A stretch of 61,758 nt of DNA, counting the filler, from Bonamia ostreae (lineage: Eukaryota), in the NCBI GenBank assembly GCA_040357525.1. It is 9 parts of 9 records of this genome, joined end to end, with 100 filler letters (N's around TTAATTAATTAA, not from the genome) between each part and the next. Parts side by side here need not be neighbours in the genome. Positions count along the whole stretch, not along the records: positions 55,053 to 61,758 come from JBDODL010000112.1; 8 more parts are not named here. One strand, 5' to 3'. Shown piece after piece: positions 6,715 through 61,758 of the stretch. Under the pieces are notes generated by a model. The model did no database searches and was not told the origin of the DNA. It was given only the letters and a program-made list of their open reading frames with translations. Position 1 is the first letter of the stretch. Each line of letters opens with the position of its first letter. Both the position numbers and the translations under genes were made by a program.

Positions 6715-6957
6715 AATTATAAAAATGAAAATTTTTGATTTATAAAATTGTTCATCAGCAATTGTTCGATTTGTCGTCTTAATTTTTAAAAATATTTAAC
6801 AAATCTCGCCATGTCCATATTATGATTCAGTTAATGCCGTTTCCAAAGTTTTGTCGTACAGACAATTTTTATACGAATTTTAGAAGCAAACTCGACAAAA
6901 TATTGGAGACTGANNNNNNNNNNNNNNNNNNNNNNNNNNNNNNNNNNNNNNNNNNNN

Positions 6958-41301: not shown

Positions 41302-41435
41302 NNNNNNNNNNNNNNNNNNNNNNNNNNNNNNNNNNNNNNNNNNNNTTAATTAATTAANNNNNNNNNNNNNNNNNNNNNNNNNNNNNNNNNNNNNNNNNNN
41401 NATTTATTGTTCTAGATAATAAAAATCGGATAAAG

Positions 41436-42100
41436 GACCAAAAACAACAACCATCTGGGCAAGTTCGAGCTCAAAGGAATCCCCCCGAAACCACGCGGGG
41501 TTCCGCAGATCGCGGTTTCCTTCGACATCGACTCCAACGGCATCATGACCGTGAGCGCAGAGGACAAAGACAGCAGCAACAGGGCGCAGATCACCGTCAC
41601 GAACGACGACAGCAACCGCCTCAGCGACAAAGACATCGAGAACTTTATGGAGCAGCACGAGAAAAATAAGGAGGAAGACGAGAAGATGTACCAGAAGGTG
41701 ATGGCCAAGAACAACCTCGAGCAGCAGGCGTACAGGTTTTCCTCCGCATTTTAGCTTGAACAACTATGTCAAAGACGAGAAGGTCAAGGAGAAGCTCGAC
41801 GAAGCGCAGAAGAGGGACTTCGACAGTTTGAGCGCGAAGGTGAAAGAGGTGATGGGACTCGTGCAAGGCGACATTGAGCTGGAAGAAAGTGAACGCCACA
41901 AGAAGGAACTGGAGGACTTGTCGAAGCCGGTCCTCGAAGCCTTGTCGAAGAACAACGCCATGCCTGGAAACGGCATGCCCGGCGGAATGCCAGGCGGAAT
42001 GCCGGGAGGAATGCCGGGAGGCATGCCCGACATGAGCGGAAATCAAGGCGGACAACAAGCCCCTCCTTCCGAAGGACCGAAGATCGAAGAAGTCGATTAA
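41436..42100 (+). CDS. HSP70: Cytosolic HSP70, 3' part
   Basis: [34 protein letters not shown] repeats, GPKIEEVD*; 19-nt intron at 41736-41754. Confidence 0.96.
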
Positions 42101-42150
42101 ATCGATTCGAAGATTTTTTTTCACGTCAAATATTTTTGACAATTTAAAAT

Positions 42151-42976
42151 TTATTGTTTGGCCTTTCTCTTCGGGAAAACCTCGGCTATAGTTTCTCGCC
42201 AACTTTCGCCTCGGAAAACCTTTACTAAAATCTCAAAGGCTTTTGATGCAAATTAAAACTTTGGTTGACCGTGAAAACTAGGTTCTTCTTGTTGATTTGG
42301 TCCACGGGGAATTTCTTGCGACTAACGCCCAACTCCTTTGCGATGTCCAACGTCAAGTTTTTCTCGTGGCCATTGTCCACCAGTCCGCCGATGACGTAAA
42401 CCTTTTCCTCCTCGATTTCCCCCAACACCTCTTCCGCGTCTGGAGACAGATAGACGATGTCCTCGCTTCTGAAGATGTCCTTCCAATGGCGAGCGTCCTT
42501 CTCGATCTTTAATTGCGGAAAGAAACCATCCATTTGTCCAAGTCGATTTTCTTCTGTTCCACAAACTTCTCGACGCTCGAGCCGAAGCTCGTCCAGATCA
42601 TCTTCGCGGGCGATTCAAAGTTTCGCTTGTTCTCCGCGTAGCAATAGAGCATCTGGTTCACGAGGCTGTTGATTTTCTTTTATTGGCGAGGAAAAACTCT
42701 TTCCGGCATCAGATTGTTGAACGACAAGTCGAAGACGATATTGAAGCGCGACTTCGCCACGTTTTCTCTGAAGAGCTGCAGACTTTCCCGTCGCGTGTAT
42801 TTCATGTTGTTTTGTTCCTCGTTTGGCGTTGCGCGCCGGTTGCTCTTTTTGTTTGTCTTTTTGAGTATTCGCTTTTGGCGTCTTTTGTTTTGCATAAACT
42901 CGACTTTATTTCTGTATTTCTGCTCTCTCTTTAGTTCATTCTTGGACTTGACATAATTCGCCTTCAGTCTTTCCAT
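42151..42976 (-). CDS. TRM10: tRNA (guanine-9-N1)-methyltransferase TRM10
   Basis: IVFDLSFNNLM, IVYLSPDAEEVL...VYVIGGLVD, VFTVNQ|TFEIL...WRETIAEVFPKRK; introns of 20-21 nt. Confidence 0.93.
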
Positions 42977-43449
42977 TTATGACAAATTTTGTTTTAGGGT
43001 TAGGAATTATATTGTCGTTGATTAAAGCTAGTTAGTTTCCATTTTTGATAAATTTTTGATGAAAAACGGGCATTTTTTGATGAGACGGAATTTGATTTTT
43101 ATTCTTTTTGTCGCTCGAGACGGAAATAAATCAAAATGAAAAATTTCCGATCAGTTTTAGCGTTCGTTGCTTGAAGAACAGAAATAGAAATTGCCAATCA
43201 GATTAAAACGAAGAGAACGAGCCGGAAATAGAAATTGCGAAGATTACAACAAAAATTTTCCCTTTAAAAAATTATTGACTTGAAAATGGCCATTCAAACT
43301 TGCTAAAAAGCAAGAAATGGCGCTAACATCAATTAGCTAAAATTAGCCGATTGGCTGCAAAAGTAAGAATGGCCGCAAATATACCTAAAAAACATAACAT
43401 ACCTAAAAAGCCTACAAGATTAAGCTCAAACTAAGTGCAAACTCACAAT

Positions 43450-44283
43450 TTATTTTGCCATGTTTTTTAACCAGCGAAGTTTATTCATTATAAAAATCGC
43501 AGACCTGTTCTCCAGGTGCGGCAGAACTGTTCGTTTGTCTGCGCGCATGAAAGGATTGTACCTCTTCTCCTCTTTGATGGTCGATTCTAAGATACCCGTC
43601 TTCATCAAACTTATAGCCGCCGACAACTTTATCTTGGCTTCACTGTTCACCTGTTCGGCTATCCTCGTCGCAAACATGAGGTTTTCGTACGCGTATTCGT
43701 GTCCGCTATGAACGGCAGTGTCGTCCGGCAGCCGCTTCAGTTTATCCATGGCGGCGACCATGTCGCTCGGACCGCCTTCGAAGAACTTGCCGCAGCCCGC
43801 CAAGAAGAGCGTGTCCCCCGTGAAAACTGCTTTCTTGTCTTCCCGGGAACTCGTGAGATAGTAGCAAATGCTCCCCCTCGTGTGGCAGGGCACGTGGATG
43901 GCCTTGATCGTCAGCTCTCGTAGCTTTATCTCGCTGCCGTCCACCACTTCGTCGGTGAGCCCCGGAATGTTGTCCTGCGCGCAGCCTTCGAGATGAGAGA
44001 TGGAAACCGAAAATCTTCATCTTCGGGTAATCTTCCAGCATCATCGTGTTCCCCGCGGTGTGGTCACTGGGCGTGATTGATTTAAAAACTCGTGTCCGTG
44101 CGTCGTGAGAGTCATCACCGGGTTCAAGCCGAAGACTTCTATTTCCTTGAATTTCCTGTGTAAGCCGTTGTCGACCAGAATGACGTCTCGCGAATTCTGC
44201 GGGATGACGATGTAGCCCAGGTTGTCTATTTTGTATCTTACTGGGATTATCTGCAGCGCGTTTTTCATTTGTATGTCGAGCAT
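43450..44283 (-). CDS. HAGH: Hydroxyacylglutathione hydrolase (glyoxalase II)
   Basis: DNLGY, LTTHGHDDHTAGN, PCHTRGSICY, FTGDTLFLAGCGKFFEG, GHEY and STIKEEKRYNPFMR. Confidence 0.92.
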
Positions 44284-44456
44284 TAAACGAATAGAACTTA
44301 ATAAAGTGTGCTAAATGCAAATTTTTGTCGTTTAGGCCACAAAATATAAATTTGAAAATCGCCTCTATCGGAGAGCCATCGCAGTTAGCGAGTTCCTTTT
44401 TAGAAATCGATATTCTGTCCAAATCGTAAAAATTCTATATTGGAACACTTTATTAA

Positions 44457-45053
44457 ATGGCGACGCCAATGGACAAAAAGGCAAACAGGTACCCGTTTTG
44501 TGTGGTTTGGGGACCTCTCCCCGTAATCTCGTTATTTTTCTAACTTTAGCTGGATTTGCCCTGTGATCGGCCATCTGGGGATTTGCGATTCCAGAGGAAA
44601 GATACACGACTTCTCGGGACCCTATTCCATCACTGTTTTGAATTCTATTCTAGTTGGATAGTTTTATGACCGGCAAAGTGAGACGCTTCCAGAAAATCGA
44701 TCTGGGCGAATTGAGCGTTGACGAAAAACACGGCCTCTCCAAGGAAGAATTCTGGGACGAATGCATAGAAGAGGCCGACGCAGCGTTCAGAAAGAAACCG
44801 GTTTTGTTTTATTATTCGCAGCACAACTTGATAACGTTTGATTTTTAAACCACAGCAACAATTGCCATGACCACGTAATAATGGCTTTAAACAAAATGGG
44901 AATCGACGCGAAAGTGATTCCGTTCACTGCCAAGTTCACACTTGAGGCGCAATTCGTAGAGTTTTCTTTCACATTTTCAGCAAAAAGAGCGCTGTTCTGG
45001 TTTATCTTCCCTTTCTCCTCATCTTGATTTTTCTGCTTTTCTTTCTGCTTTAA
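44457..45053 (+). CDS. TMEM222: TMEM222/RTE1-family membrane protein
   Basis: [40 protein letters not shown]...HNLITNNCHDHV; five introns of 19-21 nt. Confidence 0.92.
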
Positions 45054-45804
45054 TAAATTCAAAATGAGTATTTTTGTAATTTAATCAAATCTCTCCACTT
45101 TCATTTTTTTATCAAATTCAATGATGTAGCAAATCTTCGGATTGTAGCCGTTTTCGCCAAATCATCTTTTAGATAAAAGTATAATTGCTCAAGACTGTTA
45201 ATCAGTCAATTTTTTCTTGCAAACTTTTATCTTTATGTTGTTTTTCAGTATAAAATTTTTTTCTTATAAAATTTTTTCAGTGGTTCAAAATTGCTTTTCT
45301 TAAATTTGCTAAACAAATAGTTCAATATTCAATGGCTGATCCGAGTGAGACAGCGTTGCTAAAAATTTTACTACAAGGACATATTTTTAATTATTGCAAT
45401 TTTTGCTTTGAACCAAAAACTGCTTCTCGGATCTGTTTATTCTCTTTACACCAAAAACAGATTTTTATAGTTCTCATATCACGGAATATCAACTTAAAAA
45501 TCGATGTTTTTTAAAATAGTATTACAGTTTTAACAGAATTGGCGAAAGAACCAAAATGCTGATAAACGTTCCATTTAAAAAANNNNNNNNNNNNNNNNNN
45601 NNNNNNNNNNNNNNNNNNNNNNNNNNNNNNNNNNNNNNNNNNNNNNNNNNNNNNNNNNNNNNNNNNNNNNNNNNNNNNNNNNCGATTGCACCGGATGATC
45701 GTCCTGCGATTTTAGCATTTGAGTTTTGGCAATTTTACTACATTTCTTAAAGCGATTTTAAAACAACCAGATTTAAAGCCGTTAAACTGACCGAATTTAA
45801 ACCG

Positions 45805-47326
45805 ATGCGCGACGACGGCCCCATTAAAATGGCCTCCTGCGCGCCAATTAATATAGCCGTCGTGAAATATTGGGGAAAGCGGGACGAAAGACTAGTTCTT
45901 CCCTGCAACTCCTCCATATCACTGACGTTAGACATGGACTCTCTTTCGACCTCCACCATCGTCGAAGCAAGCCCTAAATTCGAAGAAAACGAAATATTGC
46001 TGAACGGAAAGTTTTGAAAGCAATTTACAGGAAAGAAAGTTTTGACAACACGAGGTTGAAGCGATGCATTAATGACTGCATCAAATTCTCGTCAAACGTA
46101 ACATTTTTAATAATTCCTAAAAGCCCGAAAAATGGGCAAGATTCAAATTCCACATTTCTTCGAAAAACAGTTTTCCGACAGCCGCCGGTTTAGCGAGTAG
46201 CGCTTCCGGGTACGCTTGTCTAGGTTATTTTTAGAAAAACTTAAAATGACTTTTTTAATAGATCAAAATTTTAGAAAAACAAAAAGTTATTTTATTCTTG
46301 ATTTTTTTGAACTTTTTTTGCAATTTTCAAACTTTTGTTATTTGTAAATGAGTGGCCGTTTTAAAACTAAACCTTCGTACTTGTCAATTATATTTCTTCG
46401 AAGTTTTAAAAAACCTCCGATCTAATTTGACTAAATTCGATTGTGCACAACTTGCAAACTAAAAGTCGACTAAAAATCTTTGATAATTTGGTCAATTATA
46501 AAAATTTGCGAAAGCAAAAGCGATTTATAAAATTTAAGTCAATTGTCTTTGCAAAATGTTTGGAATTCGCGAGAAGAACCTCATTTCCAGAATAGCGAGA
46601 ATGGGTTCGGGCAGTGCTTCGAGAAGCATTTTGGGGGGATGGGCCGAGTGGCAAAAAGGCGAAGAATCGGACGGAAGCGACAGCTTTGCCACCGAAATAA
46701 AGCCATTTGGCTGGTGGCCCGATTTCAGAATTCTGATCCTAATCGTTTTCTACGACATAACGAACAAAGTCCGACAATAGCTCAAAATCGGTTTCGAGCA
46801 CGATCGGAATGCGACGGACCGCGAACACGAGCAGACATTTCGCAGCTCTTTTGAAAACCGGACATTGCGAAGAGCAGATTGAAAAAATGCGGAAAGCGAT
46901 ATCCGGAAGGGACTTTGCGTCCTTCGCGGAAATAACGATGCGCGAAAGCAACAGACTGCATTCGGCCTGTCTCGACACCTTTCCCCCCATTTTTTACCTA
47001 AACGACATTTCCCGAAAGGTGATCGAAACAGTCCATTCATTTAACTCGCAACGCACAAAGGCGGCTTATTCGTTCGACGCGGGCCCGAACGCGTTTTTGT
47101 TCGTCTTGAAAGACGATCTGGAAGATCTAATAAACTCCTTATTTGGCGAATTCGGACAATTCGATATTGAAGACAATTCGAAGCTTCGGGTTTTTGTGCG
47201 AAACTTTAGCGGTCAAACTTAGCGTCGGCGGCTGTGGGAAGAGGGGAATCGAGCAGAGGAATCAAAAGAGCCGTGCTGGCCCGGATAGGCCCGGGGCCCA
47301 AAAGCAGCGGGGACAGTAAACGTTAA
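45805..47326 (+). CDS. MVD: Diphosphomevalonate decarboxylase
   Basis: [60 protein letters not shown] and IGPGP. Confidence 0.96.
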
Positions 47327-47334
47327 ATGTAAAT

Positions 47335-48089
47335 TTATGCGACCACTTCGGTGGCCATCAACAAAGCAAAGTTGGCCAGAGCGAACAAGACGACCAAAGT
47401 CAGAAAAACGAGGATCACCTCCGCTTTCATGTTCAGCTCGAACGAGTCCGTCTTGTCTTTGGCTGCCCTTGTTAATGAGAGAAGACGAACCAGACGCAGA
47501 TGAGGAAGGTGGCGAGGAAGATGAAGGAGAAGATGGTGGCCGAGTAGTCGGGGTCGTCTTTGCTCCCTGTTTTGGTTTCGGCGCGGTCCTTCGCCACGGC
47601 GTGGAGGACCAGCCTCCGGACTGCTCGTCCGTGCGAGTAGGCTTCGCATTCCTTGCAGAGCGAGGCGATGGACCTTCTCTCTCCTGCGTAGTTTCCCAAG
47701 AACAAGAGGGCCACTTTGTATCTTTCGAAGGGGACTGTTTCCGAGAAGACAATGTCGACCAAGTCGCTTACTCGTTTGCGCGGGTCGATTTTGACCTGGA
47801 TGCAGTGCATTCCGCCGTAGAGGATCTTCACTTCCACGAGGTCCCTTCCGTCGGAATTTTCTGGCAAGAGGTTGATTTTGGGGGAGCACTTGATCCGCAG
47901 AAGGTCGCGCAGAGTTTTCCTGGCCGATCTTCTTTTTGTCGCTTTCCGCGAGGAGTGCTTCAGGAACAGCATTATCGCTTTGTTTTTAGTCAATTTAGGA
48001 TTAGAGCTTTCGGACTCAAAATTACCTTTTAGAAGTACAATGGAGCAAACCAAGATTGAAAGTGCTGTGATTGTTATAAAAGCGAGCAT
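47335..48089 (-). CDS. Transmembrane + ubiquitin-like domain protein (TMUB/Dsc3-like)
   Basis: N-terminal TM; Ubl-like VEVKILY...VSDLVDIVF...VALLFLG...LVLHAV; two C-terminal TMs after a 23-nt intron. Confidence 0.55.
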
Positions 48090-48289
48090 TTTTTAAGTTT
48101 TGTGGCTTAATAGATTTATTTGTTTAGACTTTAAGTNNNNNNNNNNNNNNNNNNNNNNNNNNNNNNNNNNNNNNNNNNNNTTAATTAATTAANNNNNNNN
48201 NNNNNNNNNNNNNNNNNNNNNNNNNNNNNNNNNNNNGAGACAACAATATTTTTAATAAAAAATATTAATGTAATAATATCAAAATTTAA

Positions 48290-52837: not shown

Positions 52838-52951
52838 TGATGCCTGCGGGATTTGAACCCGCGAATCCCAAATGTGGGACCAATCCAACGACTCAAAGAC
52901 GAGGTCAGGAGTTGGAGGTGAAAGATGTGTTTACCACTGCACCAAGACATC
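52838..52951 (-). ncRNA. Aberrant tRNA-like gene (114 nt) with expanded D, anticodon and variable regions
   Basis: GATGTCT/AGGCATC+A acceptor, A box TGGTGCAGTGG, perfect T arm GCGGG-TTCAAAT-CCCGC, TTTT downstream; no canonical anticodon arm. Confidence 0.75.
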
Positions 52952-53134: not shown

Positions 53135-54339
53135 TCAAAAATGGTCGTCGTAAACGCCCATTGGATCCGTTCCCAAACTATTTAAATAGTTTTTGTACAA
53201 GCTATAATCATTGTTCCTTTCGTGATCATTGAATGGTTCCATGAAGTTATCAAGAATATTATATTCATTAACTATTTGCTGTGGTTTGCCCTTTTCTTGG
53301 TATTCGTTTAAAATTTGCTTCAGTCTTTCAAATTTATCGCTTTGCAAAAATTTCGAATTAGAAATTTTTCGAATTAAAATTAAAAAATTTTCATGTTAAA
53401 AATCAAATGAACGGTTTCAATGGTTCGTTATCTTCAATGTTGACACGACCAATTTCTTCGGGCATACCAAAAAATGACTCTTCAGTTCTAAGATACAATT
53501 GGCACCTCAACTTGCGACTAACCCGATCTACTGAAATAACTATTCGCGCCATTTGGTTCGCTTCTTCATAATTTTGCAATGCCATTGAACGCGGCAGAAT
53601 GTAAAAAATTTCGTGTAGTTGAAATGCGTACTGTTCCTTTTTCGGGTACACCTTTCTAATAAACGAAGTGGCATCTATCGCGTCTTGCTCTTTTGGGAAC
53701 AATATCAAATGCCACGCTTTGTTGTACACTTTAAATTGTTATTTTGAAAATAAGTAAATGCTTTATTGTTACCAAAAATTTTATTTTTCATAATTTTATT
53801 GTTTTGTTGTTAACGAAAATTTTATTTTTAATTATCTTTTTGTTACGAAAAATATTGAAAATTTGAACCAAATGAAAATTTGCTAAGAGTGACGGATTTG
53901 TTGCCAATTTCAATTTTTCTACTTGAAGTTTGACATGGAAACTCAATTGATTTGGCAAAGCGGCACCTTCTCAAATCAACAACAACATTGTTGCTATGAT
54001 TCGAACATACCAATGCTTTGGTTGTCACAATCATATCACAATTGTCCACTCTATGAAAAGCACAGTGTTGTTTTCTTTTCGATTTTTTTCTTTCATTTTA
54101 TTATTAGGAAATGTTTTACTCGTTTATTTGTTCTGTTTTGTAACGCTTTTAAATTTTTGTTACTATTTACAAATTTAGTTTGCACTTTTGAAAAAACTTC
54201 AAAAATTTTTCGAAAAATTATAAACGACCAAAACACAAAAAATTACTGTAAAAAAATCATTCCGGTTACTTAAGAACACGTAATAGGAACGATTCCAAAA
54301 ACAAAAAAACCCTTTCAGATTTTTCAAGTTGTTCTTCAT
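53135..54339 (-). CDS. Orphan protein with Cys-rich domain (copy A); start uncertain
   Basis: Exons QHCAFHRVDNC...EFPCQTSS, then YNKAWHLILFP..., then QSDKFERLKQIL... Confidence 0.65.
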
Positions 54340-54585: not shown

Positions 54586-54880
54586 CTAATCCCATTGAAA
54601 CTGTCATGAATTCGCCGCAATCTTGTTTTTATAATTTGTGATGAAAATTAGTGATGAAACCTTCCTATGAAAAGACGCAGCATTGTGTATTCCATCGACT
54701 TTCAGGCTGCAAAAAGAACGTTTCCAGTCGAGCTTTGGTGTGTGATGAGCATTTTGGGACTGTGAAAGTGCCTTTGGAGCGTTGCAGGGTAACAAAGTCG
54801 CTTGAATTTCCGTGCCAGTCGAGTTCGAAGAAGTTGAGATTTGCGTCGAAAAGTATATCGATTGTTAAGTTTAATTTTGG
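54586..54880 (+). CDS. Orphan protein with Cys-rich domain (copy B, paralog of copy A); 3' truncated, start uncertain
   Basis: QHCVFHRLSGCKKNVSSRALVCDEHFGTVKVPLERCRVTKSLEFPCQSSSKK aligns without gaps to copy A. Confidence 0.7.
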
Positions 54881-55127
54881 TTTTTAAAATCAAAGTCAAA
54901 AAATTTTTAAAATGGTTTGTGAGTTCTCACCTTTTATTGAAACTAAAAATTTNNNNNNNNNNNNNNNNNNNNNNNNNNNNNNNNNNNNNNNNNNNNTTAA
55001 TTAATTAANNNNNNNNNNNNNNNNNNNNNNNNNNNNNNNNNNNNNNNNNNNNAATTTTGACCGAACTTTAATATTTTTTCTAAAACTAATTTTGATCGAA
55101 CATCTAAAAATTCTAAAAAATATTTAG

Positions 55128-55471
55128 CCGAGAAACTAATAGCAATCTTCGACAGCAAAACTTACTCTCTGAAATCGCTAATTTTGCAGAGAAACAAAAT
55201 TAGAAGTGTTTGTTGGGACAACAACAAACAAGAATTGTTGTTTTGTTGTGGCAACAACAATTTTGCTGTTTGGTCTCCTGAACAATGTTGCATTATTGAC
55301 CTAAATTTCAACCAGAAATGTTTTCTAGTTTTTAAAAATAGTAAAATGGCGATCTAAAAAGATATCTTCGTTTGGAATAAAAGACCACCGAAAAATATTG
55401 ATTGCTGCAACAAATGTTTAAAATTCGCTAAATTTATAAAGGGGCAAGTTTGTGTTGGAAAAATAAATTGA
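55128..55471 (+). CDS. WRAP73: WRAP73/WDR8 WD40 protein, 3' part
   Basis: LIAIFDSKTYSLKSLILQRNKIRSVCWDNNKQELLFCCGNNNFAVWSPEQCCIIDL resembles the C-terminal WD repeat of WRAP73. Confidence 0.65.
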
Positions 55472-55622
55472 TTTTAATTTGTTAATTGGTTCTCAGTTAT
55501 AAAAATGGCGTATATGAACTAATCGATTTTCATCTACTTTAATATTTTTAAATCCTTAATATTGTCAAGAAGATTTTCAATTTTAAAAATTGATATCGTC
55601 AATTTAAAAAAAATGTCGTAAT

Positions 55623-56164
55623 TTAGCAAAACGGCTCGTAATATTTCTGATACGACTTTCCAGGGCAGCCAGGTTTCCCGCACTGTCCAGGAGGGCCACA
55701 AGCCCCTTTTGGGCCTCTGCAGCCTGGTGCTCCAAAAGCACCGCGGGGACCCATCACGCCATTTCTTCCAGATGGTCCACACAATCCAACGTTTCCACAT
55801 CTTCCTCGATCACCCCGAGGACCCATTGGTCCCATTATTCCAGGGCATCCGCGCATTCCGTGAAGTCCTTTCAGATATAATGAGCCAAAATATAACAAAG
55901 TCAAATTTATCAAGTAACTGTTGTTTATAAGATTAAAAGAATGGTTTTGTAAAAATAATCGAACAAATTTTGTTCATCAATTCCAAAATCAAAATTATGA
56001 CAAATATAACCAATTCCAGGGCATCCTTGTTTACCAGGAGGACCTGGTGGCCCAGGTGGTCCAGCAATAACAGGACGACAAACATTGCCGCAAGGCTGTG
56101 GCAAACAGTTCCAATCGTTCTGACAATAATTGTTGAAGGGGTAGCAATTGTTAAAATTGTACAT
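55623..56164 (-). CDS. Short cysteine-rich collagen-like protein (132 aa, 2 exons)
   Basis: Removing intron 55868-56010 joins (GXY)5-GI-(GXY)24; Cys/Asn/Tyr-rich N-terminal head. Confidence 0.85.
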
Positions 56165-56372
56165 TCTAAGAACATTAAATTGAAACCTTTTCTAATCGAT
56201 GGCTTTTGGAGTTTTTTTAGCGATTTGAAAATTTTATTGACGGTTTTGTTCGAATAAAGTAAAATATTGTCCTTGATAAAATTTTTCTAACTTTGGCAAT
56301 ATTAGATTTTAAAATGGCGTAAAAGTTATATTAAAGATTTTATAAAAAAAAGTAAAGATGACATTTAATATT

Positions 56373-59300
56373 CTAAATGTCAAATCTCTCATTTGTTTCG
56401 TCATCTTTATCTCCGTTCAAATAATAATTGGTAACAATAACACGTTGAGCCTTCTCAACATTTAAAAAATCGTTCATATCTTCATTCGCGTTCAAAATTT
56501 GCTCGCTCAAATCTAATGGCTTCTTCAATGGATTCGGTGGTGCAATCAAATCAACAATGTTTATTCCTATTAACAAAAACACAGCCAAATAACAGTAATA
56601 ACATTGAAACCACCCTTGAGATCGGACGATTTTCAGTTTTATGAAAGGTATTAAATAAAACAGCGAATTTAAAATGGTATCAAAGGCCAAAAAATGGAAG
56701 AAACCGGTGAAAAAGATGATCAAATTAAATGTTAGCGCGTTGGTTTTTAATCCTTTTTTGCCCGTTAAAGCAGAAAGTAAGTTTGATGTTACCAAAACTA
56801 GAATAATTATGAAGCAAGGGTATATCATCAAAATTTTACAAAAAGTTCCAAAGAAATTTGTTACTCCAAACGATTTTTGTATTCTTTTAAGACTTTCTAA
56901 AGTCTCTTTCATTTTTTTGAATTCTTTTTTAATAAATTAGTTTCAATGCTACAGATTTTATAAAAAATTTTGTGTGCGATAATATAAAAAATTGTCATTG
57001 TCCCAAATTATAAATGTGCATATCAAAAATAAAAACGAGGATTAATGTCTGAAATAGAGCCAAATAATGGCCCCAAAAACTTTAGAATAAAGATAGCGAT
57101 ATCACTTTTGCATTCAGCGCTTTGTTCTTTATCTTGCGAAATTAATTCATCTTCATTTGATTGAGGTCCCAAATCATTTAAAATTGCAGAAAGCAATTTT
57201 TTTAAATTCGTTTTAATCACAAAATATTCAAATGTGAATGATTTAATGGCGATGTAGCCAATTATTAACGAGATGAGCACATAGATATTTACCAAAGCGA
57301 TATCTCCAAAATGTGTAGTATCACAAACTTTTTTGCATTCTGCGTCTTTTTGTTAATTTACATATTCCATATAAACCGTTTAAATCGAACTCAAGTTTCT
57401 TGTTACAACAATAAATCGGTTTATATCTTCGCATAAAATCTTCTTCTCCGCCAGAATGTTGGCAAGGGCAACATTTATTCTTTTCATAACAGCATACTGG
57501 CCTTCTATCCGTCGTCACATTCAGTTTTAGAAATGGACAAATGTTCGCAAAAATCAATTTACATATTTCAGAAGGGCTTTCTTCAATGTTTTTTGAACAA
57601 TTACAACAACTTTCAAAAAAATCTTTTACCAAATAAGTGTTGTACACTATTTCTGAAATGCCGTTATGATCATAAATCAACGGCTCTGTACCGGAATTGT
57701 TACCAGTTTTCAATACCTTTTCTCTTTTATCCATTATGTTTTCATTGATTTCCATTTTTCTTTCTATTTTTTCAATAATTTCCATTTTTCAACATATTTT
57801 TAATAATTTTTGTTGCTACCGTTTTAATAATGTTGTTTGTGATTATATGATTTGGTCGTTTTTTAAATAATTTTTGTTGTTAACGTTTAAATGATGTTGT
57901 TTGTTATTCGATTTAATAATATTATTCGATTGTTATCGTTTTTATATAAAACCTTCGTAATTTTTTTGGCGACTGAAGAATATGTGCAATGAAAAAAACA
58001 GCATTGAAAGCAAAGAAAGTACATACGATATAACTATCATTGTATAAAAAGTGGTTGTAGCAAACCAAACATCCACAAAACCCAAATTTATTCGTCTAAC
58101 AATTACAAATTTTATCAAGAAGATAAAAGAAAGAAAAATTGCCGAAGAAACAGCCATTATTTGAGGGAAAATGGACAATTTAATTTTAGTCAGAAAGGTT
58201 TGCCGTTCGCAAAACAGAATTAGTATTAAAAAAAGTTCAATCACTCCAGTCAATGATCCAATAATCAAAAAACTGGCACTGAAGTATTTGAGTTTCGACC
58301 CACCAGTTTTTTGCATCTTCAATTTTTTAACTTTCTTCACAAATTTTAATATTCCTTTCAAATTGCTCTTAAAGCGAAGAAGCAATCTGGAAAATTTGCG
58401 GAAACTTCTTGACATCGTTGATATTCTCGATGCGAAATAAGGCGCAGAACCCAAACTATTTTTGTATAAATCAGATATGTAAACAATAATGTAACAATAT
58501 GCAAATAAAAAAATTATTGGTAACTATCAGATGTATAGAATAAAAACCCAAAAGGCAAAACAGCCAAAGAAATTGCCAATGCTACAGCTATTATAATGGC
58601 AATGCAAATTAGAACAGAAATTGCATCATTAAAAGCAAAAAATGCCAAACTTGTCATAAAAACAACCGCTTTTTCAATGTAAAAAATCAGATTTTCACAT
58701 CCTTCAATCAAATTTTTTAAAATGTCATGTACTTGGTAATCAAAATCGAACCAATCTTTAAAAAACGACAAGAAATAGAGAAAACAAGCAATTGTCGCGA
58801 ACAAATAAGCGATGAAAAATGCCACCAAAGAAGCCGTTTCAGCAGAAAATGTCTTTTTTACTAGAAAAATAGTCATATTTTTTGTTTTGTTGAAATTCAT
58901 AAAGATGTTTACGCACAAATTGAACATTGTCACCAATATTAATGAGACGTAAGCAATAATAAAATCTTTTCTTTCCGCAAAATTTTGATAAATGACTGAA
59001 TACAAAAACAAAATGTACAAAAAATCGGACATCTGGATGAACCTTAAGCTTTCTTTTCTGTTTTTTAGCAAGAAAAAGTACACTTTTCGTATAAAAATCA
59101 GCGGTAACAATAGTAAAACGAAAGAGTTTTGAAAAAGAGACTTTTGTGATTCGCTCCATTCGTCTCCGGAAAAATCATCGAAGCAAATTTTGATAAAAGA
59201 CTTTTGTTAAAATTATAGTTACCAAGTACAAGAATATTTCAACACAATTGTTTATAAGAACTAACAGAACGTCTATGAAAGCGAAATCTGATTTTTTGTG

Positions 59301-60054
59301 TGTCATATCTTCGCCGAATGAAGATAACCAAGGATGTTTCATTTTATTGTTACACTTTGCAGAAACAAAAACTTTTGTATTGTAAATTGATAACGTAATT
59401 TTTTAATTGGCTTATTGGTACCAGTAACAATAAAACTACAAAAATAATGATTTGGTTTTTAGGTTTGTTAAAAATATATTTGCATTGGAACAAACAGTAA
59501 TAAAATGTACCTAAAAAAGAGATTATCGTATACAGAAGCACAGCAAGGTCGAAAAGAATATCCAAATTGGTTTCAACGAAACTAATATTCTGCATAAAAG
59601 AAGTGTCAACGCTTTTATAGAAAGTTGAAATATCAAATTTATCCATTTCGGAAGCATAGAAAATCTAAAATTAAATAAAAACAATTGAAGCGTAAATGCA
59701 CATTCGAAACAAATAGATGTCAATAGTATTCGCAGAAAATCCGAAAAAACGCACTATTTTAGATAATTTTTGTCTTCCTAGAAAATCTCCTTTGCCCGGG
59801 AAATTGAAGCCACCACAAAAAGTATCGAAGATTGCGACTATTATCAAAACGGCGAAAATAGTTTTGTGATAAAAGTTTGCAAATTCTGCCATTGTTGCAA
59901 TTGTCTTGTTTGGATAGTACTCATTTTCATTTTGATATAAAATGAAAGAAAGAAGAATTTGGATGAAGTAAAGACAGAAAAACAAACGGATGAAACCGAC
60001 GAGAATATTTGTTACAACCGAAATAACATTATCGTTTATTTTGGATTGAGTCAT
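56373..60054 (-). CDS. Large orphan polytopic membrane protein (many exons; may be more than one gene)
   Basis: Chain of same-strand hydrophobic ORFs linked by short GT-AG introns (e.g. 18 nt at 59665-59682); Cys-rich loop at 57321-57785. Confidence 0.6.
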
Positions 60055-60434
60055 TAATTTTATTTTCCGAATTTCAAGTTTTGTTACAGTTTTGTGTATG
60101 TTTGCGGCTATTTTTAAATTTTATAGTTGTCGTATAATAAAAAGTGGCAATGATAAATAATATGATCAGTTTTAAATAATATTTGACAACAATGTTTTTG
60201 TCATTATCGAACAAAAAGATATTTAATTAAAATTGAACAAATCGTAAATTTATTTTAATCAGTCATAAATAGACTGTTTATTTTAATCATTAAATTTAAC
60301 AAAATTAAATTTTTCATGTCAAATTTCGAAGAATATTTATTATTAGAAAATCCGTATAGAACTCTAATTTCAATATTATATAAAAAAATATAAGCTTGAG
60401 ATAACATATACTTTTGGCTAAATCTTATTGTCGA

Positions 60435-61758
60435 ATGACAGTAATTTCATTAGCAGAATCAGAAAGTCAAAATTTAGAGAATAGCAAAAACAGTCTTGAA
60501 AATTTCCCGATTCCAAATTTTATCAAGAAAAATTTAAAAGCGCAGTCAATAGAATCTTTGTTTGAAATTCAAATTCAATCTTTCCAACCAATTTTTGATG
60601 GGAAAGATTTTGTTTTTCTTCGATCTTAAAATTTTAAAATTGTCAAAAATTTTTATTTTCGATTTTTAAAATTTTAAAACAAAATTTGTAAATAATCTTT
60701 AAAATTTTCAATCTTCAAAAACAAACAAAAATTGTCAAAAATCTTTAAATTTAAAAACAGATTGGAAGAGCTAGAACTGGACAAGGAAAAACATTGGCAT
60801 TTGTTTTGCCAATAATAAGTCGGTTATTCAACGACGACAAAAATTCACGCTCAAAGTTTCCTTCTGTTTTGGTACTTTGTCCCGTCAGAGAATTGGCCAA
60901 ACAAGTCGCTACAGTTTTTGAGAAAACTTGTGGCAATCGATTCGCTGTTTGCACAGTCTATGGCGGCACTCCTTATTCTAAACAACGTTTGAAATTTTTT
61001 ATAAAACTTTGATATCAAATCTTTAAGAATTTTGACTAAATTTTACTTAAATTTTTTTTCTATTTGCAAATTTTGAATATTTGAAGAAATGATGCTTAAA
61101 AGAGGAGTAGATATCGTTGTAGGAACTTGCGGGAGAATAAAAGATCTCCTAGAAAAGCAAATGCTTCGATTAAAAGCATTGCAGTACGTTGTTTTAGACG
61201 AAGTCGACGAAATGTTGAATATCGGCTTTGCAGATGATGTCGAGACAATTTTAAGTCAAATTGGAAATGGTGAAAATAGCGAGAAAAAGAACAAAAAACA
61301 TCAAGTTTTATTGTTTTCGGCTACTTTGCCGAAATGGGTTGAGAAAATCGCAATGAAATATTTGGCGTTTCTATAAAACAAATTTACAATTTCAAAAAAT
61401 TTACATTAAAAATAATTTGCAACAACAAAATTTCAAAAATTTACATTAAAAATAATTTACAAAAACAAAATTTCAAAGATTTAAATTTAGAAATAATTTT
61501 CAACAAAAAAATTACATTAAAAATAATTTGCAACAACAAAATTTCAAAAAATTTAAATTTAGAAATAATTTGCAACAACAAAATTTCAAAAATTTACATT
61601 AAAAATAATTTTCAACAACAAAATTTCAAAAAATTACATTAAAAATAATTTGCAACAACCAAATTTCAAAAAAATTTCAAATTAAAAAAATTTCAAAACA
61701 AATTTAAATGATAACATTTAGCCAAAACTACGATCAAATCGATCTCGTCGGAAAAGAA
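60435..61758 (+). CDS. DDX21: Nucleolar DEAD-box helicase DDX21/RH7, 5' part
   Basis: LFEIQ...FDGKDF|IGRARTGQGKTLAFVLP, PVRELAKQV, YGGTPYSKQ, GRIKDLL, DEVDEMLNIGF and LFSATLPKWV. Confidence 0.88.
61380..61705. repeat. Intronic minisatellite of about 38 bp (AAAATTTCAAAAATTTACATTAAAAATAATTTGCAACA), about 8 copies
   Basis: Visible tandem copies within a DDX21 intron. Confidence 0.9.

Follow-up and report, generated by a model that had tools for sequence, protein, structure and literature searches.

What a protist parasite might do with a very short collagen-like protein that has no leader and carries cysteines (Cys) inside its Gly-X-Y region is the question raised by a minus-strand locus of Bonamia ostreae. 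The locus lies in a window (the whole stretch of DNA analysed, 61,758 nucleotides with filler) that holds no second collagen-like frame; as read from the sequence, its frame starts with the ATG at 56164 and stops at 55623-55625. This is a real, native, and probably functional gene, an orphan of unusual make-up. The reading preferred here, with a probability of about 0.4, is that by analogy with known systems it may encode a cytoplasm-assembled, disulfide-locked fibre of the spore wall or spore ornament, which is weakly read in microcells.

Parts of the stretch are contained in seven public runs from five studies, four of which were compared here. DNA run X10 yielded 0 reads, and 12 of 18 indexed runs bearing the species label of X1 contain almost none of the words of the stretch, which does not prove absence; neither was counted as evidence. 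X1 is a DNA run. The RNA status of run X3 is guessed, not on record; X3 was treated as RNA because it skips six GT..AG introns kept by X1 and has zero depth in 11 of 30 bins. At the locus it is represented by a single 497-base contig over 55607-56218, with no other X3 contig at either end according to the depths per bin, and this island comprises the collagen gene and its short flanks. The features of the locus are as follows.

56187-56218, minus strand: 5′-UTR exon, with an in-frame TAG 5′ of the ATG; RNA cover stops at 56218
56166-56186, minus strand: 21-nt intron of the 5′-UTR (GTTT..TAG), missing from the X3 contig and retained in X1
56011-56164, minus strand: coding exon 1, by sequence reading, with an Asn/Tyr/Pro/Cys head of 34 aa and the first 5 triplets
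55868-56010, minus strand: putative 143-nt phase-1 intron (GTTA..AAG), giving an open frame in all three haplotypes
55623-55867, minus strand: coding exon 2 (sequence, Pfam, and variants), with 24 triplets including 7 Cys, a Tyr-rich 9-aa tail, and the stop codon
55607-55622, minus strand: short 3′ flank covered by RNA (X3), the cover stopping at 55607 in an A/T run
55920-56019, plus strand: 100-nt intron of an antisense RNA (GTTG..CAG), overlapping the sense intron and the last bases of exon 1

There is direct support for sense RNA at the 5′ end. The X3 contig extends to 56218, where the bin depth of 3.91 is accounted for by that contig alone, and the bin beyond the 3′ flank (55277-55500) has zero X3 depth. 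Because the contig lacks the 21-base minus-strand intron 56186-56166, sense RNA exists. In this spliced form, there is an in-frame TAG two codons upstream of the ATG, which counts against an upstream signal-peptide exon. Both the 21-nt intron and the stop before the ATG had been foreseen in the original prediction and are recovered in the RNA-like run; a signal-peptide exon further upstream, which would speak against that prediction, is absent from the X3 contig, and a rarer isoform may exist.

Once joined, 56164-56011 and 55867-55623 would encode 132 aa: the 34-aa head, which carries 5 Cys, is followed by 5 triplets, then by a GI break of two residues, and lastly by 24 more triplets and a tail of 9 aa. 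The model contains 29 Gly-X-Y triplets (87 residues) and 14 Cys in total, with 8 within the triplets (4 at X and 4 at Y; GCP three times, and GRC, GLC, GCR, GAC, and GQC once each) and another as the last residue of the Tyr-rich tail. This frame and this composition are directly supported, and the head, the 29 triplets, the eight in-helix Cys, and the terminal Cys agree with what had been described. The chain is basic (13.6 kDa, pI 9.1), has no Thr and no KGE/KGD motif, and carries Pro at 18 of its 58 X/Y places (31%). Exon 2 has 23 complete triplets in one run, compared with at most 5 in 1000 base shuffles, and matches Pfam Collagen (PF01391) with 44 bits (cut-off 27.2); for exon 1, Collagen is the sole Pfam match at E up to 0.05. 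By hydropathy only, the mean Kyte-Doolittle value peaks at 0.85 over 11 residues and at 0.62 over 15, the latter maximum arguing that there is no leader or membrane segment, as had likewise been proposed. The head Cys are found at residues 7, 14, 20, 25, and 29, spaced by 7, 6, 5, and 4. The 7, 6, 5 spacing of the head (residues 7-29) is repeated at rod residues 101-119, with a chance of 0.3-0.7% by permutation, calculated post hoc.

A search for relatives and paralogues had been suggested together with the original prediction; it revealed no specific homologue, and no paralogue in the window, which is what the paralogue part covered. Word-based searches with exon 2 (44-140 aa) and with residues 1-42 (91-2000 aa) returned no candidate; both are weak for low-complexity queries, and the genome may be missing from the collection, in which 0 of 10 exactly looked-up window frames were present (start sites guessed). 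A phmmer search of 1.84 billion representatives gave 23,296 matches, the best 150 of which are all long repeat proteins with 37-47% identity, with no specific relative among them. ESM Atlas yielded generic collagen clusters only, with recognition below its threshold, the PDB sequence search reached a best E of 0.52, and blastn against phages gave 34-base chance matches only. Contig scans detected one locus each in 1 of 18, 1 of 496, and 1 of at least 600 stretches, all matched through the triplets alone. One candidate (L001) was dropped as an analogue, there being no Cys in its helix.

The Cys density of the rod (8 in 29 triplets, 0.28) compares with 41 Cys in 30,388 triplets among the best 150 of the 23,296 phmmer matches, where 135 of 150 have no triplet Cys and the maximum density is 0.085, although this comparison is biased toward long proteins, the matches having been ranked by repeat number. 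The contrast drawn with animal fibrillar collagens, whose helices were said in the original prediction largely to exclude Cys, is right but incomplete, as a bacterial protein has 6 Cys in 47 triplets. This protein (L002, 1465-2475, from a Bacillota genome) is leaderless and consists of a 14-residue head with 3 Cys, the 47 triplets, and a 182-residue tail that is BclB-related (TIGR03721, 80.3 bits, below the cut-off of 93.15); TIGR03721 matches neither exon of the collagen gene. Cys inside triplets are carried by both proteins, at a density of 0.13 per triplet in L002 and about twice that (0.28) here. In addition, a gene cut by the end of a metagenome contig (L003, 1309-2037) encodes a leaderless head with 11 Cys in 56 residues, followed by 16 triplets that include GCP, are rich in Thr, and hold only 1 Cys, and by a globular tail of at least 139 residues; its match covers 18 triplet residues only. 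Directly upstream of this Cys-headed collagen-like gene (L003, 269-1165) lies a 2OG-Fe(II) oxygenase-like frame (Pfam 21 bits, below the cut-off). L002 and L003 are likenesses of design, matching the Bonamia protein through the triplets only.

BclA/BclB and L-BclA of Bacillota have in common with the Bonamia protein the lack of a signal peptide and a short Cys-bearing head or anchor before a Gly-X-Y rod. According to the available text of two sources, BclA/BclB are assembled in the cytoplasm on disulfide-linked cysteine-rich layers (PMC11362473, PMC7333573), and the same design is proposed for the Bonamia rod. In spores of Clostridium and Bacillus, cysteine-rich lattices are reported to self-assemble and form disulfides inside the mother cell and to bear collagen-like hairs (PMC7333573, in the part available), and L-BclA has been proposed, in the accessible part of PMC11362473, to anchor via an N-terminal Cys pair. 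Compared with BclA/BclB, the Bonamia protein has no C-terminal trimerisation domain (a 9-residue tail, compared with 182 residues in L002) and no Thr-rich triplets; Thr accounts for 48.3% of Y positions in Gram-positive collagen-like proteins, as given in the portion of PMC8968730 at hand. Furthermore, the Bonamia gene is eukaryotic with introns, and there is no sequence kinship beyond the Gly register.

Minicollagens polymerise into a wall through disulfides, and by analogy this is likely a working principle common to minicollagens and the Bonamia rod. Cnidarian and myxozoan minicollagens likewise have a very short collagen domain, many Cys, and a Cys-rich N-terminal part, but the Bonamia protein lacks the signal peptide/propeptide, the CXXXCXXXCXXXCXXXCC pattern, the polyproline flanks, and the C-terminal Cys domain that the available text of PMC4195985 describes for them. 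Unlike minicollagens, the Bonamia rod has most of its Cys inside the helix and one C-terminal Cys. Animal fibrillar collagens possess a signal peptide, about 330 triplets, and a C-propeptide (COLFI), whereas the Bonamia protein has no leader, 29 triplets, and only PF01391. Nematode cuticle collagens are characterized by an N-terminal cuticle domain with a hydrophobic segment, and neither the domain nor such a segment is present here. The 87 triplet residues are close to the SAR median of 85.5 given in the accessible part of a preprint (Linden and King, bioRxiv 10.1101/2021.10.08.463732), from which the word cysteine is absent. By its sequence, the Bonamia protein is a collagen-domain protein that is neither a minicollagen, nor a member of BclA/BclB, nor a fibrillar collagen, and by analogy its rod may work like minicollagens and BclA/BclB.

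With regard to structure, a trimer prediction had been suggested, and the model of three copies of exon 2 reaches the pass mark, probably through likeness to solved collagens. The three-copy model scored 0.50, compared with 0.00 for the best control, with at least 92% of contacts agreeing between runs and a partner pLDDT of at least 81. In calibration, this threshold was attained for 21 of 30 solved pairs but for 0 of 23 single chains; for eukaryotic proteins the figures were 17 of 29 pairs (just 1 of the 7 lacking an older relative) and 0 of 30 single chains. The calibration does not extend to three copies. The score probably reflects solved collagen helices, which are well represented among known structures, and shows likeness only. 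For exon 1, the single-sequence AlphaFold model is not confident (pLDDT 51.7). Collagen rises by 0.286 nm per residue, at which the rod would be about 25 nm long. In a triple helix, the X and Y side chains point outward, which favours links between rods. In synthetic collagen peptides, Cys oxidise to give inter- and intra-helix bonds and polymers, as described in the available part of PMC10765305. Cys114 (Y) and Cys119 (X) show the i to i+5 spacing of interchain salt bridges in collagen, as the accessible text of PMC11923368 has it. The 29 interrupted triplets may be barely stable if prolyl hydroxylation is absent.

In the preferred reading, a native single-copy gene of a haplosporidian-type parasite would yield a basic collagen-like chain made on free ribosomes, and three such chains would wind into a rod with a kink near its N-terminal end. 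Outward Cys would join a rod to its neighbours and to partner proteins instead of bridging its own three chains. Anchorage would come from the Cys head and the terminal Cys, and dityrosine links may be contributed by the Tyr-rich ends. The rods would be assembled in the cytoplasm, where haplosporidian spore walls and ornaments form, and would be locked by oxidation as that cytoplasm breaks down, like cysteine-rich bacterial spore coats; in the non-sporulating microcell, the gene would be weakly read and covered by spliced antisense RNA. It was reported, in the parts of these sources available, that the haplosporidian wall first appears as a dotted layer in sporoblasts enclosed by episporoplasm (PMC9790386) and that spore ornaments of Bonamia and Haplosporidium consist of wall material (PMC4141087). 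The cytoplasm-assembled, disulfide-crosslinked fibre of the original prediction has a close analogue in Bacillota spore coats, and its link with spores, filaments, or extrusomes is conjectural.

Several observations stand against a spore-wall fibre. According to the available text of PMC7527985, no spore has been shown in B. ostreae, while B. perspora has one. No homologue of the head or the rod was found in the searches described above, and the protein has no BclA/BclB-type trimerisation domain, no Thr, and no KGE/KGD. The coding junction is unseen in the RNA-like run, and its GTTA donor is not among the 6 observed introns. Moreover, the neighbours of the gene are membrane-protein-like frames and a DDX21 helicase, not a spore cluster.

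That the protein instead serves in the microcell, as a structural or metal-binding component of the cortex, the haplosporosome, or another dense body, with its Cys reduced or bound to zinc or copper and no spore involved, is somewhat unlikely. Proteins that lack a leader remain in a reducing environment, in which Cys clusters often serve as metal ligands, and a microcell role would agree with the sense RNA of X3, from which the 21-nt intron has been removed, as well as with the lack of a known B. ostreae spore in the part of PMC7527985 available. However, the Cys of the protein are 4-20 residues apart, with no CXXC or CC cluster, and the X3 depth at the collagen locus (27) resembles the depths of 8-20 next to it and is dwarfed by the value of about 3,500 for DDX21, although contig depth reflects expression poorly.

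A relic of lost sporulation, subject to background transcription both ways and with no working splice or translation, is unlikely. It would account for the lack of a known spore (PMC7527985, available text) and for the splicing seen in RNA, in which the dominant joint is antisense and the sense coding junction is unseen. The junction of the 143-nt intron is absent from the X3 contig, X3 being the one such run examined. The sole large X3 joint at the locus connects 55919 to 56020, with 100 nt removed, plus-strand GTTG..CAG ends, and 199 letters on the shorter side; it is absent from X1 and X4. The original prediction of a 143-nt intron with a GI break at the exon junction is upheld as regards the open frame, but X3 shows the joint 55919 to 56020 in place of that splice, and the GI break stays conditional because the exon junction is unobserved in RNA. 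Assembled contigs keep a single path of a bubble, so the missing sense junction is not proof of absence, which weakens the case for a relic; the X3 contig may merge sense and antisense molecules, one path being kept.

The antisense intron itself is directly supported, and the simplest reading is that spliced antisense RNA exists at the locus and is at least as common as the sense-spliced message. Two plus-strand frames were rejected: a Pro-X-X frame at 55651-55863, which has no Met and mirrors the Gly codons, and a spliced frame from 55772, which has 83 aa in two haplotypes and is frameshifted to 65 aa in X3. As the latter is not kept in X3, the haplotype that shows the splice, there is no stable plus-strand frame. 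In yeasts, sporulation genes are repressed by antisense RNA, and it may be guessed that the Bonamia gene is held down in microcells in the same manner.

Variation among the window, X1, and X3 also bears on the relic. With 5 of the 12 X1 differences falling in these 542 of 4,862 bases (p = 0.007), the locus varies more than the DNA around it, which would suit a relic; on the other hand, the frame is intact in three haplotypes, all 29 register glycines are retained, and the exon 2 substitutions are all at third codon positions (4 of 4, chance 0.012), three being synonymous and the other changing Ile to Met. Within the 143-base intron there are 2 indels and 2 substitutions, both indels of the locus falling there, and exon 1 is free of variants in X1 and, over 56020-56164, in X3 as well. 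The frame appears to be under constraint, although the variant counts are small.

The same variability, and the bacterial spore collagens that act on host complement (PMC11362473, in the part available), could be taken to indicate a host-interface protein, i.e., one that leaves the parasite without the aid of a signal peptide and, as a cationic collagen mimic or adhesin, attaches to oyster matrix or haemocyte receptors. The Pro content would be consistent with this: 31% at X/Y lies near the 29.9% that the accessible part of the preprint gives as the median for animals, and far from its 0% for SAR (bioRxiv 10.1101/2021.10.08.463732). Such a role is nevertheless quite unlikely, as the protein has no export signal, membrane anchor, or globular binding domain, and the variation is mostly synonymous, unlike that of an arms race.

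It is very unlikely that the gene is real but has another mature form. Eight single-intron models are open in at least one haplotype and four in all three, and among these only the 143-nt model has a GTT donor; all 6 introns seen in X3 on the collagen piece have GTT donors (5 GTTT, 1 GTTG, and 0 GTTA), and one ends in AAG. A GTAAAC donor at 56034 would give 124 aa with an unbroken 27-triplet helix and no GI break, open in all three haplotypes, while a 47-nt intron (55964-55918) would give 164 aa with a hydrophobic insert, a version broken by a 1-base deletion in X3. The minus-strand reading of the X3 contig also gives an open collagen frame, of 146 aa, whose register is restored by the one-base deletion and which would represent the product if the X3 gap were a deletion allele. 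However, the gap has exact plus-strand GTT..CAG ends with one shared base, which is intron-like and rare for a random deletion; as ends that match an intron exactly would be unusual for a genomic deletion, the open 146-aa frame was taken as chance. The 143-nt intron model appears to be the best available from the sequence.

Host or contaminant origin of the gene is unlikely, and that the piece as a whole is foreign DNA (oyster, cnidarian/myxozoan, or bacterium), as an animal-like collagen with 31% Pro and an assembly of short pieces from an unculturable parasite might suggest, is highly improbable and largely refuted by X1 linkage, by a DDX21 exon that falls outside the animals, by a GTTT spliceosomal intron like those of the neighbours, by a GC3 of 0.37 compared with 0.28-0.36 in four neighbours on the same piece, and by the lack of the minicollagen Cys pattern. 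The preferred reading of a native gene, made already in the original prediction, is directly supported in this respect. A 4,863-base X1 contig (55072-59933; 11 other letters and 1 gap) spans the collagen gene and its neighbours at depth 8.6, and depth is 9.8 in the adjoining X1 contig, which covers DDX21; X1 and the source sample may be related, yet 12 differences separate X1 from the window on the 4,863-base contig. The helicase exon shares 40-63% identity with the 120 matches listed, and 54% with DDX21 of Ostrea edulis. A tree built from 29 rows and 88 columns places it in a set of 14 that includes the rhizarian Amorphochlora and 0 of the 7 animal-group rows, with weak support (89/82, not starred). 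The source of the collagen piece is, judging from these sequences, not oyster and probably rhizarian. The best named helicase match is a UniRef entry labelled as the amphipod Hirondellea gigas, which lies in the set of 14, apart from the animals, and is perhaps a parasite sequence in that record.

The window consists of separate pieces of about 6.8-6.9 kb in falling size, linked by N44-TTAATTAATTAA-N44 spacers (the 12-base TTAATTAATTAA at 54997-55008), with joins at 6914, 13817, 20719, 27601, 34464, 41302, 48137, and 54953 (eight paired N runs in steps of about 6.85 kb). Because the pieces are separate, the neighbourhood of the collagen gene is 55053-61758 only, in which the neighbours are hydrophobic frames without Pfam matches and a DEAD-box helicase. 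The former make up a minus-strand run at 56373-60120 of membrane-protein-like frames, possibly one or a few long multi-exon genes, two of which are linked in X3 by a 92-nt intron (58547-58456); a Cys-rich frame at 57324-57785 lies within the run. The latter, a DDX21-like nucleolar RNA helicase on the plus strand (60400-61758), has three GTTT introns seen in X3.

Other pieces show features of their own. The piece at 41400-48100 is higher in GC (0.37-0.45 per 2-kb step) and in GC3 (0.55 and 0.69 in two enzymes) than the collagen piece. Two head-to-head paralogous frames, 53846-54094 (minus strand) and 54648-54884 (plus strand), have common Cys/His and are 49% identical over 71 aa; they have no Pfam match above the cut-off and lie on a different piece from the collagen gene. 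In addition, a 114-base Rfam tRNA match (52838-52951, minus strand, 38 bits) is uncalled by ARAGORN and is possibly an intron-containing tRNA or a pseudogene.

The word collagen has 0 occurrences in the ascetosporean genome paper PMC11069148 with four supplements and 0 in the main text of the B. ostreae transcriptome paper PMC9329632, and no named haplosporidian spore-wall protein was found in literature mostly outside subscription journals, the search having been built for other questions. A 2021 proteome survey reported, in its available text, zero collagen domains in Rhizaria (Linden and King, bioRxiv 10.1101/2021.10.08.463732), a group in which the present work places a collagen-domain gene. 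Collagen-like networks have been proposed for the foraminiferal shell matrix (PMC11329275, accessible part, citing Tyszka 2021), so a claim to the first rhizarian collagen holds at the gene level only and within the literature covered here.

The gene is of interest because no B. ostreae spore has been shown although B. perspora has one. A resistant spore of B. ostreae is an old open question, which bears on the return of infection to fallowed oyster beds (PMC7527985, in the part available). The fullest version of the proposal must be regarded as doubtful: that B. ostreae keeps, intact and under selection, a gene for a spore-wall fibre; that the fibre is a mini-collagen, self-sufficient, lacking a folding domain and cross-linked along the whole rod, whose heads could zip onto the rods of other trimers via the 7-6-5 spacing; and that antisense RNA would hold the gene down in microcells. 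If true, this would be a fibre design not described in eukaryotes, and the gene would provide the first molecular marker for a hidden B. ostreae spore stage as well as the first description of a collagen-domain gene in a rhizarian; if the gene is an ordinary microcell orphan, it would be a curiosity of composition. The analogy suggests independent origins, in bacterial spores and in a eukaryotic parasite, for collagen rods that lack a leader and are locked by cysteines. As a species-specific candidate wall gene with a putative sense/antisense switch, it would offer a target for sequence data from oysters, sediment, and possible second hosts.
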